Assembly: GCA_965287045.1 (NCBI GenBank) | Contig: OZ336893.1 | Location: 7,254,001-7,318,000 of the forward strand | Direction: 5' to 3' | Length of the DNA stretch: 64,000 nt | Source of the DNA: Carcharhinus amblyrhynchos | Lineage: Eukaryota | In this document: in pieces, positions 1 to 36,017 of the stretch | Layout: the number at the start of each line of letters is the position of its first letter | Numbering within the stretch: the first letter of the stretch is position 1 | Position numbers and translations under genes: made by a program | Notes under the pieces: generated by a model | What the model was told of the DNA's origin: nothing | Database searches by the model: none | What the model saw: the letters and a program-made list of their open reading frames with translations, nothing else

Positions 1-1767
1 TCCCCCCCCCTCCACTTTGCCGTCTCCCCCCCCCTCCACTTTGCCGTCTCCCCCCCCTCCACTTTGCCGTCTCCCCCCCCCTCCACTTTGCCGTCTCCCC
101 CCCCTCCACTTTGCCGTCTCCCCCCCCCTCCACTTTGCCGTCTCCCCCCCCTCCACTTTGCCGTCTCCCCCCCCCTCCACTTTGCCGTCTCCCCCCCCCT
201 CCACTTTGCCGTCTCCCCCCCCTCCACTTTGCCGTCTCCCCCCCCCTCCACTTTGCCGTCTCCCCCCCCCTCCACTTTGCCGTCTCCCCCCCCCTCCACT
301 TTGCCGTCTCCCCCCCTCCACTTTGCCGTCTCCCCCCCTCCCACTTTGCCGTCTCCCCCCCCCTCCACTTTGCGTCTCCCCCCCCCTCCACTTTGCCGTC
401 TCCCCCCCTCCCACTTTGCCGTCTCCCCCCCCCCTCCACTTTGCCGTCTCCCCCCCCTCCACTCCTCTGCCCTCTCCCCCCCCTCCACTTTGCCGTCTCC
501 CCCCCCCTCCACTTTGCCGTCTCCCCCCCCCTCCACTTTGCCGTCTCCCCCCCTCCACTTTGCCGTTCTCCCCCCTCCACTTGCCGTCTCCCCCCCCCTC
601 CACTTTGCCGTCTCCCCCCCCTCCACTTTGCCGTCTCCCCCCCCCTCCACTTTGCCGTCTCCCCCCCCTCCACTTTGCCGTCTCCCCCCCCCTCCACTTT
701 GCCGTCTCCCCCCCCTCCACTTTGCCGTCTCCCCCCCCCCTCCACTTTGCCGTCTCCCCCCCCCCTCCACTTTGCCGTCTCCCCCCCCCTCCACTTTGCC
801 GTCTCCCCCCCCCTCCACTTTGCCGTCTCCCCCCCCCCTCCACTTTGCCGTCTCCCCCCCCCCCCACTTTGCCGTCTTCCCCCCCCCCCACTTTGCCGTC
901 TCTCCCCCCCCCACCCCACTTTGCCGTCTCTCCCCCCACCCCACCCCACTTTGCCATCTCTCCCCCACCCACCCACACCCCCACTTGCCATCCTCTCCCC
1001 CACCCCACCCCACCCCACTTTGCCGTCTCTCCCCCCCCACCCCACTTTGCCGTCTCTCCCCCACCCCACCCACTTTGCCATCTCTCCCCCACCCCACCCC
1101 ACCCCACTTTGCCGTCTCTCCACCACTGCCGTCTCTCCCCCCCCACCCCCACTTTGCCGTCTCTCCCACCCCCACCCCTTTGCGCCTCTCCCCCCCACCC
1201 CCACTTGCCGTCTCTCCCCCCCCCCACCCCACTTTGCCGTCTCTCCCCCCCCCACCCCACTGCCTCTCTCTCCCTTTGCCGTCTCTCCCCCCCCCCCCCA
1301 CCCCACTTTGCCGTCTCTCCCCCCCCCCACCCCCACCCCACCCCACACTTTGCCGTCTCTCCCCCCCCCCACCCCCCACCCCACCCCACCCCACCCCACC
1401 CCACCCCTTTGCCGTCTCTCCCCACCCCCCACCCACCCCCACCCCACCCCACCTTTGCCGTCTCTCCCCCCCACCCCACCCCCCCCACCCCACCCCACCC
1501 CACCCCACCCCCACTTTGCCGTCTCTCCCCCCCACCCCACTTTGCCGTCTCTCCCCCCCCACCCCACTTTGCCGTCTCTCCCCCCCCACCCCAACTTTGC
1601 CGTCTCTCCCCCCCCACCCCACTTTGCCGTCCTCCCTCCCCCCACCCCAACTTGCCCGTCTCTCCCCCCCCACCCCATTTTGCCGTCTCTCCCCCCCCCA
1701 ACCCCACTTTGCCATCTCCCCACCCCACCCCCACCCCACCCCACCCCACCCCACCCACTTTGCCATC
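1..1767. repeat. C-rich minisatellite, ~23-26 bp unit (CACTTTGCCGTCT + C-run), grading into (CCCCA)n
   Basis: Tandem units of CCACTTTGCCGTCTC(n)T to ~860, then CCCCACTTTGCCGTCTCTC(n)A with interspersed (CCCCA)n. The array stops abruptly at 1767 and is truncated by the window start. Confidence 0.97.
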
Positions 1768-2311
1768 TGTATTAAATGCAATATTTGTCAACCACCAGTT
1801 AGCTAACAAATAACAATGGGTTTATTACTTCACAACTATAAGCTGGGCGCTACAATTGATGTGTTCATTCTTAGCTGTACGATCAATCTGGCTACAACAG
1901 TCCTCATTCTGCCTAGAGATCCCAGCTGTTTCCCCGTTGGGTGACTGAGTTACATTACCCTTCTGATGCACGTACCTTACAGAAGCTAGCTATTAGGTCC
2001 CTCCCTTTTAACTCCCAGTACATTGATAGCTTATACAATTATCAAAATATTAGCAAAAATTTACATTCTTAAACAAAGTTTAAATGAAACTCAGTCTGCC
2101 AGGGGACTTGTCTTTTTCTGGGAGTGATGTAGTTGAATGATTGGTTGAGGTTCAGCCAGAGGTAGTTTCAGTGGTACTTGCTTCATTAAGACTCACTCCT
2201 GGTGCCAGCACCTCACTTTCACTATTTCTTCCATTTCATTGAGAGCAGCACTTTGGCTTGCTACTGGCTGATCAGCCACTTCACTCCTTTGACAATCAAC
2301 AACACCAATAT

Positions 2312-2450
2312 TTTTTATTTACTAGTGTCAGAAGTAGGCTTATATTAACACTGCAATGAAGTTACTGAGAAAAATGCCCCAGTCATGCACTTTGGTGTAC
2401 TTGTTTGGTACACTGAGGGAGAGCTTAGCATTGCCAATGCACCTAACTAC
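2312..2450 (-). mobile_element. V-SINE tail-type A, 3' fragment
   Basis: Matches the 3' part of the complete copy at 16085-16390. Confidence 0.85.
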
Positions 2451-2611
2451 TTGGTAGCGTAATCAGATCAGATAGTAACACCGGCTTTTGGGACTACTCC
2501 CATCTCCGTGTTTCTTCAAAACTTGTCCTGCACTTTCACTTCATGGGACAATGGCCCTGTCCTGGCCACCACAACTCCTGGAACCCAACTTGGTTCTCTT
2601 ACAGCATTCAT

Positions 2612-2937
2612 TGAAATCCTAAATGCAGAAGGAGGCCATTTGGCCCATCTATTCTGCACTGAAAACAATCCCTCCCAGCCCCTATCCCCACAACCTCACA
2701 AATTTACTCCGTTTACCCCTCTAACCTACACGTCCCAGGTCACTAAGGGGCAATTTAGCATAGCCAATCAACCTAATCTGCACATCTTTGGACTGTGAGA
2801 GGAAACCGGAAGACACGGAGGAAACCCATGCAGACACAGGGAGAACGTGCAAAGTCCACCAGACAGTGACCCAATCTGGGAATTGAACCTGGGTCCCTGG
2901 AGCTGTGAGGCAGCAGTGCTAACCATTGTGCCACTGT
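2612..2937 (-). mobile_element. HE1-like V-SINE, tail-type B (CR1-like tail)
   Basis: tRNA-derived head (TGGCACAATGG..GGTTCAATTCC on - strand), V-core and a ...GGGCCAAATGGCCTCCTTCTGCA tail. Confidence 0.9.
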
Positions 2938-3213
2938 ATCTCCGTTCTTTTCAAAAGCTGGATCATCTGTCTTGAATGCTCTTAACACTTATGATGAATC
3001 ATTGTTCCTTTTCTGGCAACTCTGTCTTGAGTCCACCTTAAATTTGGAACTACCTGGCTCTCGAGCATCATCCCTGCAGCAGCTCAGCCGGAGCTATCAG
3101 CTATCAGGTTCCATAAGCTAACAGAAACCATGCTGAGGTCTCTATTTTGGGGATGGGGTAACCATGCAGTTTCACAGCCTGGTTTACCGCCAGCTTCTAA
3201 TTTCCAAAGCTAT

Positions 3214-3950
3214 TTACGGTCTTATCTGGTCTTGGCCACACACAAAGCAATCTGTTTCTCTAAATCTACATATTTCTGGGGAGTGACTTCCCTTGCATAG
3301 GTAGCACTCTACATTATTTCTAGGCCGTTGTCTAAATTTTAGATAGCTTTTGAGTCTTCTGGCTTCTGCATTTACTCTACTTAAACCAGTACCTTCAGTC
3401 CTGATCCTGATGCTGCTGCTGCTCGCAGCTTCCCACCCTAACTGGGCAACATTGTTGCTTTGTGCACTTTGTAGCTGCAGTATGCCTTTCTCAGCGCTCT
3501 CTATCGCTGATGCCATTTCCAGTGCCTTTTTAAAAGTTAACCCTGATTCAGGTGACAGTTTTCTCTGCATAGCTGCATTGTTTATACCTGATACCATTAG
3601 GTCCCTCAACATGTTGTTCAGACCCAAAATTGCAATGCTCTGCAATTTCTCTTAGCCTGGTCACAGTGTCTGCAATGGTTTTCCTTGGGACTGTATCTGT
3701 GGTGTATCTTTGTAATATTGCTGAGGACTTCGGTAGTATTGCCATTTTCCTAGGTCAACAAGTTCTGCAAATGTTTTTGTGCAAGGAGCATCTGGGGACA
3801 TTAAAGTTATATGTCTGGGTCCCACATGCAGTCAGTAATATAACTTTCTTCTTGTCCTTTCCCTCTATATCATTAACATGAAAAAAATATATCATACTGT
3901 ACCCAGTCTTCTGGAGCAGTGTTGAAAGCTTCTAATTTTCTGAAGAGAGG
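3214..3950 (-). pseudogene. Gypsy gag remnant (frameshifted) with zinc knuckle
   Basis: ORF pieces RLREIAEHCNFG, LRDLMVSGINNAAMQRKL..LTFKKALEMASAIESA and CYLCKGSHSPEIC resemble vertebrate Gypsy Gag. Confidence 0.8.
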
Positions 3951-4354
3951 CATGTCTACTTTTTTCTCTTTTGCAGGCTCAACTCAATTGGACTTCTTCG
4001 GCAACTCTTGCAAACAAACGTTTTGAGTTGCCATCATTTTCCTCATCACCAATGCAGTAAATACAATATTTAGTGACTACCAATTAGCTAACAAACAAGA
4101 ACAGTTTATTACTATTTGCAACTATATTGAGAATGCTACAATCGATGTGATTGCTGTCTGCCCTAGGATCAATCTGGCTGCAAAATCTTGCATGCTGCCC
4201 TGAGATCCCCATGCTTGTTCCCTGTTGTGTGATCGGGTCACATGAGATCAAAAGGCTAGCTACTGAACAGAACCATATGGACTCACCATTTGCCATCTCC
4301 CCATCCCCATTTACCCCAACTTAATCCATCCCCCCTTTCTCTCCACCTTTCCCT

Positions 4355-5107
4355 GGCCATGATTTTACATTGCTCGGGCTGGCACGCACCTGACCTGAAT
4401 GTGCATGAAAAGATATTGGACATGTTTCTTGGAATCATGGTACACTCATACAATATTTTGGCTGGTGGGCATGCAGGGGAGTTGGAAGCAGGCAATTTAT
4501 TCCATTAAGTGGCCAATGGAATACAATTTTTAGTGGCTTGTCTGCCTTTACAGTTGGTGGGTGGGCTGATTGGCCATGTGGCCTTGGCAGGACAAACTGT
4601 CAAGCTGAAACTAAATTTAAAAAGGTTTCCTGGGCCTCAGATTTCTGTTTCAATTTGCTGCCTAGGCTGTAAAGTTTTTCCAGAGATCTGAAGCTCCCTG
4701 AGACAGCTCTGCAGCAACTATCCCCCGAGGGATGTTAGAAATGGGTTAACAGTTACCTTCCACTTAAGTTCTAAATTGGATATTAATCATTTAATAGAAG
4801 TCACTGGGACCGATGGCACTGGGTGTTGGGGAGAATTGTATGTGAAGTTGAATCAGAGAAACAAAGATAGTTTATGAAGAAGCAGAACTTGACTCTCCTT
4901 TACTGAACTGCAAACTAGAGGCTCGTACAAGGGAGCACAGTAGAAATGCCCTCTCCCTGTCCTCTCCAGCAGCATTGAGTATTTCCCTACGTGCGTTTCA
5001 CACACCCGTTAATTGGCCAGCCAGTGTAAAATCTTGTTCCAGGGCCGACCATGGCTGGAAGGCCATTTTACACCCGCTTCCAGGCCCGATAGATAAAAAC
5101 TCAGGCC
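4355..5107. mobile_element. Putative non-autonomous DNA transposon (MITE-like)
   Basis: Imperfect terminal inverted repeats GGCCATGATTTT / AAAACTCAGGCC and internal GATTTTACA/TGTAAAATC, in the same style as other GGC/GGGC-ended elements here. Confidence 0.5.
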
Positions 5108-5304
5108 TCCATCTCTACTCTCAACTCCCCCCCCCCCCGCCCCCCACACATCTTTAAATTTAGCTTAATTGTAAAGTGTTATGTTGGTGCCATGTTTTGG
5201 ATGTATCTCAATCCTTTTTCCACCTTTTCTTTCATTTGCTTCAATTTATAGACCTCCATCTCCTGCTCTCCTTAGATTTAGGAGGACAAAAAGATCCAAT
5301 ATTT

Positions 5305-5875
5305 CGAAAGACCATAAAATGTGCTTGAGTAGACCATTTGGACTTTTGAACCTGTTCCACCATTCAACAAGATCAGGACTGATCTCCACAAATCTACCCT
5401 CCCACATTATCCCCATCTATTATTTTATGATTCCCTTAGTACCCAAAAATCTATTCACTTTTGTCTTAAACATACTCAGAAGCTGACTATCCACAGCTGT
5501 TGGAGATAGAAAATTTCCAAAGATATGAAGATCTTTGAAGAAATTTCTTCTTGTCTCAGTCTTACTTGGTGGACTATTCTGAGACTGTCACCCTGGGTTC
5601 TGGATTTCCTAGCCAGGGATTGCATTTACTGTGTTGAGCTCTTTCAGAATTTTATATGTTCTGATTATATTACCCCTCATTCTTCTAAACTCCAACTTAT
5701 ATCCATTGTGTTTACAGACTATCTCCCTTACCGCAGTAACTTGTCTAGTGAATCCTTGCTGCACTCCCTCAAGGGAAAGTATGTTTTTCCTCCTCTAAGG
5801 TAACCAAACTGCACACAGTATCTCAGGCATAGCCTCACCAATGCCCCGTATGATTGTTGTAAGACTTCTTTATTA
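5305..5875 (-). mobile_element. CR1 LINE 3' fragment
   Basis: Reverse complement resembles the RT C-terminus and 3' UTR of the CR1 at 13200-13850. Confidence 0.8.
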
Positions 5876-6619
5876 TTAGTGCCAGATTTTCATAGCGTTT
5901 TGGACCCAAATGTAGGAGACCTGTTCCCATTTCTGACAGATCCAGATTTCTCAGTGGGGGAAGGGGCGGGTCGTGATTTATGCAGCAGCACTATTTGCAC
6001 TCAATGTTCAATTCAAACAGTCCATAATTTGTGTAATTTCAATGGTGTCCATAGTTCACATTTTCCCAAGGGCTTTCCTAGTGGCATTATTAACATTTGG
6101 CTGAGTTTCTGAAGCTACAGTATCTCAGCAAGAAGTTCTGAGTTCATAGTTTGACTGTTTAAAGAGGCTATTACAGGATCAATTGTCTTTGATGTGGGGT
6201 TCATTTGGTTTGGGATTTGATCCATGGAATTTGTTTTTAAAATAGATTGACCACTTGAGATTTAATGAGCTCTAAATGAGAACTATAATAGATTGCTAGA
6301 AACTTACTGATTTTATTTTCATCTCCACATGTTTGTCCATCATGGATACTGGGTGAATGGCTAACGAGGTGGCATGACAAAAGTAGGAGAGTGGTGAGGG
6401 GGGAGGATTGGAGGGCCTAACATCCCAGTTGTTTCAGAAGTTGATTTCCCAGAGACCTGAGGCAGGCTTGTTAACCCGCTTGCCTTGAAGTTCTCCTGCC
6501 CTCATGGTTGCCTGTTTTTTAGGGTTAGTGGATCTGCACCCAGTGAAAATCACAAGCTTCGCAGTAGATTTACAGACGCTTTTCTTATGAATCCAGAAAG
6601 TCGGGTGCTACTCAACTCA

Positions 6620-6745
6620 AGTCATGGAAATGTGAGGAGAGAGTGGGAAAATGGCATTGAGGTAGACGGTCAGCCATGTGCTAATTGAGTGACAGATGCT
6701 CAAGGGGCTGAATGGCCAATTCCAGCTCCTATTTTCTATGTTCCT
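6620..6745 (+). mobile_element. CR1 3' tail fragment abutting the splice branch site
   Basis: ..GGTCAGCCATG..GGCTGAATGGCC..CTCCTATTTTCTATGTTCCT resembles the CR1 3' end at 13740-13845. Confidence 0.8.
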
Positions 6746-6758
6746 TGACGTTTTGTAT
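6741..6758 (+). promoter_or_regulatory. U12-type branch site (TTCCTTGAC) with non-canonical AT 3' splice site
   Basis: TTCCTTGAC at 6741-6749 matches the U12 consensus TTCCTTRAC. The branch A lies ~11 nt upstream of the exon start inferred from homology, and the intron ends ...TTTTGTAT. Confidence 0.75.
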
Positions 6759-6838
6759 GCGGTACAAGGTACAATACAGGATGGAGAATCGAATGACAGC
6801 CGTATTATAGGACTTGTGGAATGCAACAATGAATATGC
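6759..6838 (+). CDS. INPP5B: INPP5B coding exon (PH domain): AVQGTIQDGESNDSRIIGLVECNNEY(A)
   Basis: Similar to recalled human INPP5B AVQGVLCEGDSRQSRLLGLV...EHA. Donor GC|GTGAGT; 80 nt; phase 2 end joins the next exon in frame. Confidence 0.88.
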
Positions 6839-7109
6839 GTGAGTTACTTATTTTTCTTAACTTTAAAGTGTTATTGTGATACTAGTTTTTAAATTATATC
6901 TACATAGAGAAGTCTACCTGTTATTGACCCCACAGTGTAATCCTTCATAGTGGACGTTAAGTGGCAAATGATGGACAACCTAGCATCACATAATTCCATT
7001 TTAAGATTCCCGATAATATTAAACTGGGATTGAATTAGACCTCTAAATTCATGGGCTAATTTTCTGATGATTTTCTATCTTGGGAAAGAGACTGCCTTTA
7101 ATATCCTGC

Positions 7110-9333: not shown

Positions 9334-9431
9334 AGTTTTTATGTACGCTCATCGAAGAATGGCAGTCATCGCAGAGGATGTTTCATTGCAAGAAATAGTG
9401 CCTGTGTCAGAAGATTTTGTTATTGAGGAAG
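9334..9431 (+). CDS. INPP5B: INPP5B coding exon: VFMYAHRRMAVIAEDVSLQEIVPVSEDFVIEE
   Basis: Strong match to recalled human LFLYTHRRMAITGDDVSLDQIVPVSRDFTLEE. Acceptor CCCTTAG|, donor |GTACTA; 98 nt. Confidence 0.95.
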
Positions 9432-18172: not shown

Positions 18173-18283
18173 GTTCTGATACCACAGTCAAAATAACATC
18201 AAGAGATGTTGATCTCGAACTTCAACTCCCCTTTGGTTCACAGACCAGGATATTCCTACAGGAAGCCCGCAAGGCATGTGAAG
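18173..18283 (+). CDS. INPP5B: INPP5B coding exon: (G)SDTTVKITSRDVDLELQLPFGSQTRIFLQEARKACE
   Basis: Matches recalled human GSDVTVQLDTAELSLVFQLPFGSQTRMFLHEVARAC. TAG| acceptor, AAG|GTAAGA donor; 111 nt, phase 1/1. Confidence 0.96.
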
Positions 18284-35585: not shown

Positions 35586-35733
35586 TGCTAGTGGGGCAGC
35601 GCAGGGGTCTAGATGTAAAATGTTTGAAAGCCATTTGTACATTTTTTAAATTTTATAAAGCCAAATATTGAACAGTGGAGGCTGAAAATCAAATGCAAGG
35701 TGTTCTGTTTGACACAGATGTTTGTAATTTCAG

Positions 35734-35904
35734 AATTACTCAAGCAAGCTGCCACTGGAGGATTCCAACCTCAATTTCTATGGCTATTGAAGTACAGACA
35801 AAATAAAGGTTTCCAGTTGGACAGATCCCTGGGGAGGAAATATGCAAATTGTATTCCCTCCTCACCCGATCAGAAAGGAAAGAAGATGGCCAGTAAAATC
35901 AGCG
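35734..35904 (+). CDS. INPP5B: INPP5B coding exon: (E)LLKQAATGGFQPQFLWLLKYRQNKGFQLDRSLGRKYANCIPSSPDQKGKKMASKIS(G)
   Basis: PQFLWLLKYR matches recalled human PEFLWLSRYR. TTTCAG| acceptor is in phase with the previous exon. Donor GCG|GTAAAG (171 nt, phase 1/1) is the best guess. Confidence 0.85.
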
Positions 35905-36017
35905 GTAAAGTCCTTTAAGTCTTTGACCTGTTTTTAATGCCAATTTTATCTCTTCTTCTCTTGAAGGATTTAACTTTGTTTTCTGGTATCATCCCAATGT
36001 GATTGGTCTCAATTGTT

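Follow-up and report, generated by a model that had tools for sequence, protein, structure and literature searches.

A probable U12-type intron with GT-AT ends in shark INPP5B and the apparently differing ends of its counterparts in OCRL, birds and mammals

Introduction

Introns of the U12 type with GT-AT ends form a known, rare class. Table 2 of PMC1557818 gives 7 of 66 non-canonical U12 introns as GT-AT, and on sheet 1 of the supplement of PMC4176328, 6 of the 20 GT-AT rows are classed as U12; the human U12 GT-AT introns catalogued in PMC1557818 and in that supplement are found in ADAT2, ALG6, CACNA2D2, SLC24A6, OCRL and AP1M1. According to the mutational rule summarised in PMC4176328, introns with A as the first base can be spliced whatever the last base is, whereas those with G as the first base require G or T at the end. 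An excerpt of PMC3584512 places the optimum distance from the branch A to the 3' site at 11-13 nt and describes the choice of this site as error-prone, alternative U12 3' sites being rare and, possibly, errors. The ends of non-canonical introns are also labile: among the 24 human-mouse pairs of an excerpt of PMC1557818, 14 differ, each at one base.

The closest described introns are those of INPP5B and OCRL in mammals. In INPP5B, a U12 intron is AT-AG in human and mouse (PMC1557818, Table 3), and the supplement of PMC4176328 places the human one at chr1:38411522-38411923 (401 nt, U12, AT-AG). In human OCRL, the same supplement lists a GT-AT intron of the U12 class at chrX:128674455-128674720 (265 nt). 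An excerpt of PMC2974198 calls the OCRL GT-AT intron of human and mouse 'highly unusual' and numbers it 'intron 2', and an excerpt of PMC12142645 puts the odd acceptor before exon 2; in our reading, both papers refer to one intron and differ in how they number it. In human OCRL, c.40 is the first base of exon 2, which begins in phase 0 (PMC12142645).

The shark INPP5B intron described here is very likely a further example of this class. It shares GT-AT termini and the U12 class with the intron of human and mouse OCRL, as well as the homologous position of a phase-0 first coding intron, but resides in a different gene and lineage and is 7,152 nt long compared to 265 nt in human; moreover, the OCRL intron of the shark is itself AT-AA. 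Compared to human and mouse INPP5B, the gene, the U12 class and the non-canonical character are the same, whereas both ends differ (G instead of A as the first base, T instead of G as the last). The catalogued U12 GT-AT introns have the same termini and motifs, and none of them comes from a cartilaginous fish. What is new is the apparent difference in end letters of a single ancient intron across sharks, birds, mammals and OCRL: whereas the known lability concerns one base between human and mouse, here four end pairs are observed or deduced at one position in two paralogs across the shark-mammal split. Among the matches listed in our literature search, the scope of which ended short of subscription journals and intron databases, there was no report of the INPP5B intron in sharks. 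INPP5B is not named in the main text of PMC2831892, PMC7367187 or bioRxiv 2022.09.24.509304, and OCRL is absent from that of the first two.

Results

The window, i.e. the whole stretch of 64,000 nt that was analysed (G000:C24:7254001-7318000), lies within a 2.9-Gb genome. The proteins it encodes have their nearest matches in sharks, and the gene at this locus is identified by its protein matches as INPP5B. Shark INPP5B proteins align (tblastn) to 22 exon blocks, in order, from 450 nt 5' of the window to ~71 kb past it, and a profile search with Pfam INPP5B_PH matches two exons located 3' of exon 2. With the peptides of exons 1 and 2, the sole PDB match is the mouse INPP5B PH domain (2kig), at weak E-values (0.72 and 0.31); the exon 1 peptide aligns to the beginning of this structure. 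Coding exon 1 (57 nt, 19 codons, + strand) was located by scanning 100 kb upstream of the window; it lies 394-450 nt before window base 1 (with its donor, L003:9550-9614), and its peptide shares 79-95% identity with the first 19 residues in three shark proteins. Coding exon 2 (80 nt, 6759-6838, + strand, phase 0 to phase 2) belongs to the PH domain and is followed by the U2-type donor of the next intron, GTGAGT at 6839-6844, three RNA-type contigs ceasing to fit at 6838. Further along the same strand are coding exon 3 (9334-9431, a tblastn block with bounds from the adjoining AG and GT), the next mapped coding exon, also of the PH domain (18173-18283, Pfam and tblastn), and another approximate tblastn block at 35730-35906.

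The first coding intron (G000:C24:7253607-7260758, + strand, of which 1-6758 is inside the window) is 7,152 nt long, has phase 0, begins with GT and ends with AT. Its donor, GTATCCTT, directly abuts exon 1, 394 nt 5' of window base 1. Right after exon 1 stands GTATCCTTG, the U12 5' splice site RTATCCTT, with C at both +5 and +6, so that it reads GTATCC rather than GTRAG; such a match is expected by chance at a fixed place with a probability of ~5e-5 per position. The sequence-only reading had placed a U12-type RTATCCTT donor upstream of the window, which is where it was found, and had seen none in 1-6758, where our search of the + strand likewise returned no exact match, along with four one-mismatch matches. 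A U2-type upstream donor, one of the findings named there as fatal to the proposal, was looked for, and the donor turned out to be U12-type. The donor letters show no listed change in the X11 and X15 contigs (organisms E and F), both of which run through as DNA. About 35 nt 3' of the donor starts a C-rich tandem repeat of ~2.1 kb with a unit of ~20 nt (L003:9640-10000 and window 1-1770), the G-rich opposite strand of which could form G-quadruplexes.

At the 3' end, the order is TTCCTTGAC (6741-6749), GTTTTGT (6750-6756), AT (6757-6758) and the AVQG codons from 6759, all on the + strand; the coordinates and letters claimed earlier for the motif, the AT and AVQG are exact. TTCCTTGAC, which spans −18 to −10 relative to the junction, matches the branch motif TTCCTTRAC and pairs in silico with the U12 snRNA of this genome; A6748 (position −11) is the predicted branch point. 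This motif is not enriched across the window (4 found vs. 5.0 expected); the weight of the motif comes from its position. For TTCCTTRAY in a 10-nt window at a fixed place, p is ~3e-4, which is too optimistic because the tail of a repeat overlaps TTCCT. A polypyrimidine tract between the motif and the AT is absent, leaving only the 7-nt spacer GTTTTGT (a weak indicator of the U12 type). The distance between the predicted branch A and the end of the AT is 10 nt, whereas the two exonic AGs, also on the + strand, end 20 nt (6767-6768) and 31 nt (6778-6779) past that A; the former would cause a frameshift, and the latter is in frame and would remove AVQGTIQ.

The minor spliceosome is represented in the shark genome by a U12 gene (141.5 bits) and a U11 gene (109.9 bits), both far above the Rfam cut-offs. 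In silico, the U12-type donor of INPP5B pairs with U11 at −7.9 kcal/mol, compared to −3.7 for the neighbouring U2-type donor. Pairing with U12 was less discriminating: among 240 twelve-mers surrounding the site, TTCCTTGAC reached −7.1, whereas three repeat-derived windows at 6718-6720 reached −7.6. Thus, the energy alone does not single out the branch motif, and we discarded it as proof of the branch site.

The RNA evidence consists of contigs, not reads, of relatives at a depth of 4-17, and the junction comes from organism B, a close relative. The acceptor side was covered by four runs, namely X20 and X18 (organism B), X16 (organism G) and the DNA run X6, in which exon 2 is uncovered, and the donor side by X20 and X17 (both organism B but from separate studies), X11 (organism E) and X15 (organism F). 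The X20 contig (record 24) fits 6759-6838 exactly. On the donor side, X20 and X17 fit exon 1 up to L003:9607 and continue with 30 letters that reproduce window 6760-6789, the single change being T>C at 6770. Hence contigs from two studies join exon 1 to 6759, the 3' site at 6758/6759 that the sequence-only reading had proposed, and in this relative the intron is excised at these ends. One shared G permits a shift of the junction by 1 nt, in which case the ends would be TA-TG. The X18 contig (B) fits 6731-6838 and the X16 contig (G) fits 6742-6838, the sole differences being at 6770 and 6791, so both contain the branch-motif region and the AT. Thus, the donor letters are known from this shark and organisms E and F, and the AT ends from this shark and organisms B and G.

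In these two of the three RNA-type runs (X18 and X16), the intron end is kept and the fit is lost at the exon 2 donor; presumably, they represent partly spliced RNAs that still hold a slow minor intron, in contigs that carry no information on levels.

Of the 309 INPP5B and OCRL protein models examined, 153 contained the start of exon 1 together with the landmark in exon 2, and in 148 of these the spacing from exon 1 to exon 2 is that of the AT junction; the remaining 5 are read-through or shifted. The loss of seven residues that an acceptor at 6780 would cause was seen in none of the 153, and none of the contigs of the three RNA-type runs, with one exon 2 contig each, starts at 6769 or 6780.

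Taken together, these observations make us confident that a 7,152-nt GT-AT intron has its 3' end at 6741-6758, that the upstream exon is joined to 6759 in a relative, and that the intron is likely removed by the U12 machinery. The proposal of a U12 intron with non-standard ends is thus borne out for the GT-AT ends, the junction and the motifs, whereas dependence on the minor spliceosome is deduced from the letters. The GT-AT pair is allowed by the terminal rule for U12 introns, under which a first G goes with a last G or U. U11 and U12 would jointly recognise donor and branch motif, and the 3' site would be set mainly by the distance from A6748 (optimum 11-13 nt), so that splicing would take the AT at −2/−1 and skip the more distant AGs (20 and 31 nt). 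Since G in first place is compatible with G or U in last place, and A with any base, the end letters of an old intron could then drift by single changes.

Major-spliceosome introns with GT-AT ends, such as that of DGCR2, are known in human data (PMC1557818 and the supplement of PMC4176328), and the 73% pyrimidine content of 6719-6740 could be taken to point to an intron of this U2 type here. This stretch, however, is the tail of a repeat, and the DGCR2-like features given in an excerpt of PMC1557818, a GTRAG donor and a good polypyrimidine tract, are replaced in the shark by GTATCC and a 7-nt spacer. With a donor that is a perfect U12 consensus carrying C at +5/+6, a branch motif at U12 distance only 7 nt before the AT, and homologous human introns classed as U12 in the supplement of PMC4176328, we consider a U2-type intron very unlikely. 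Still less credence is due to an assembly error or a private variant at 6758 hiding a true GT-AG intron, even though most U12 introns are of the GT-AG subtype, as those of birds are likely to be at this position: the same AT is present in contigs from organisms B and G, and each of the 6 read-through models, which come from bamboo sharks and skates, contains a Tyr codon that is impossible from AG.

The third alternative accepts the AT site and adds a regulated acceptor at 6778-6779, yielding a PH domain without AVQGTIQ. The AG there is in frame, and the error-prone choice of U12 3' sites (PMC3584512, excerpt) would accommodate it, but its separation from the predicted branch A by 31 nt, compared to the 11-13 nt optimum, together with the absence of starts at 6769 or 6780 from the three RNA-type runs and of the deletion from the 153 models, makes such regulation improbable, and the earlier suggestion that the PH domain is altered in this way found no support. 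Neither 6769 nor 6780 is used in any of the relatives' contigs, which are of low depth, so a rare isoform from the 6780 acceptor could have escaped them. Nor was either of the other patterns named as refuting the proposal seen: instead of junctions solely to 6769 or 6780, organism B contigs use 6759, and instead of G or C at 6758, contigs of organisms B and G have the T of the assembly. The preferred reading is, accordingly, that of a GT-AT intron of U12 type ending at 6758.

A counterpart of this intron was identified in shark OCRL (G000:C4:95402894-95409976, minus strand; L032, L033). After a 14-codon exon 1, the donor ATATCCTT starts at 95409976 and the 7,083-nt intron, with the motif TTCCTTAAT, ends with AA before exon 2 at 95402893. 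An AG one base past the AA would cause a frameshift, and the in-frame junction is that of the shark OCRL models; by its letters, the first coding intron of shark OCRL is AT-AA and of U12 type. The ISF read in one OCRL model of a bamboo shark is consistent with an AT donor. In shark INPP5B and OCRL alike, exon 2 has a length of 80 nt and the same phases, and the two peptides align from residue 1 (11/27 identical, E = 6e-4); thus, the intron positions in the two genes are homologous.

Gene models that stray into the intron indicate its ends in other lineages. Among the 28 chondrichthyan INPP5B models with exon 2, 6 enter it from the intron. In all 6, AVQG is preceded by a Tyr codon (TAT or TAC), which means an acceptor of AT or AC, not AG. 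Translation runs through the entire intron in two scrub-jay models (VSF...FLDPQLQ), and one pigeon model ends with FLDTALQ; these peptides, as distinct from bird DNA, point to GT-AG as the likely state in birds, and we dropped the idea that the intron is non-canonical in every lineage. A stray Gln directly before AVQG is present in 10 of the 169 models listed, all mammalian. This fits a mis-shifted CAG end, and the AT-AG intron of human INPP5B is therefore very likely the same intron, judging from the models and the 5' location rather than from human DNA. Two coelacanth models differ at residue 19 (Tyr vs. Ser).

For INPP5B, the end pair at this position is thus GT-AT in sharks and AT-AG in mammals, and in birds it is likely GT-AG; for OCRL, it is AT-AA in this shark, whereas human and mouse have GT-AT. 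With these five states, a root with G first and T last requires 4 changes, whereas every other root needs 5 or more, but the first base is tied when the bird is left out and the last base is tied if the bird intron ended with AA. The comparison of end letters thus narrowly favours GT-AT predating the INPP5B/OCRL duplication, and is merely suggestive because end changes are frequent in non-canonical U12 introns. A fuller history, in which GT-AT is ancestral, older than the duplication and kept in shark INPP5B and mammalian OCRL throughout jawed-vertebrate history, with the position a natural hotspot that walked through GT-AT, GT-AG, AT-AG and AT-AA by single changes while the intron itself was retained, is possible, although it falls slightly short of what we would call probable.

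The sequence from ~6630 to 6745 is the 3' end fragment of a LINE-like, high-copy interspersed repeat on the + strand, which presumably belongs under the CR1/L2 label; 3 of the 5 copies examined have LINE ORF2-like peptides nearby. The tail of the repeat ends in TTCCT, the same letters that open the branch motif, and so covers its first five positions; 690 exact matches to the tail were found genome-wide. The gap between the branch motif and the junction is 9 nt here, compared to an apparent 12 nt in the gene models of skate, bamboo shark and bird, and the bird and skate models suggest that the branch motif is older than the repeat insertion and was then located 12 nt before the junction. We also considered whether the repeat targets U12 branch sites generally, and rejected this possibility: the strict TRAC continuation was observed at this locus alone among the 690, with ~5 expected by chance, and a shorter pattern gave 6 matches compared to 3 for the reversed control. 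These genome-wide tests of tail matches revealed no preference of the repeat for branch-like targets. One look-alike locus (L002) showed no exon and is taken as a chance occurrence.

Discussion

As a single intron, the one in shark INPP5B is an ordinary rare case, with practical use in annotation: AT ends trip gene finders, as in the chondrichthyan models that read part of the intron as coding ahead of exon 2. The interest lies in the position as a whole. The four end pairs, each of which fits the published rule for first and last bases, make it a compact natural test of U12 subtype switching and, should the walk through single changes outlined above be true, the position would represent a living series of the intermediates that have been proposed for switching between the GT-AG and AT-AC subtypes.

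The homologous position in human OCRL has a medical side as well. The Dent-2 variant OCRL c.40-14A>G escaped SpliceAI, with a score of 0.02, and was not evaluable by minigene, and U12 is unmentioned in its description (PMC12142645). The variant is in the homologous intron; disruption of a U12 branch adenosine would be the obvious reading and may be the explanation.

Two further observations concern the rest of INPP5B. A second intron of U12 type is found in the RhoGAP region, from G000:C24:7375541 on (position 121541 in window numbering), with the donor GTATCCTTTC, the motif TTCTTTAAC and the acceptor AG. In addition, many RefSeq isoforms of shark and ray INPP5B have their start Met in exon 3 and lack exons 1 and 2 (P0002, P0003, P0005, P0010, P0011, P0016, P0041, P0044 and P0056), which may mean that the minor intron is retained, that other promoters are used or that the annotation is faulty.
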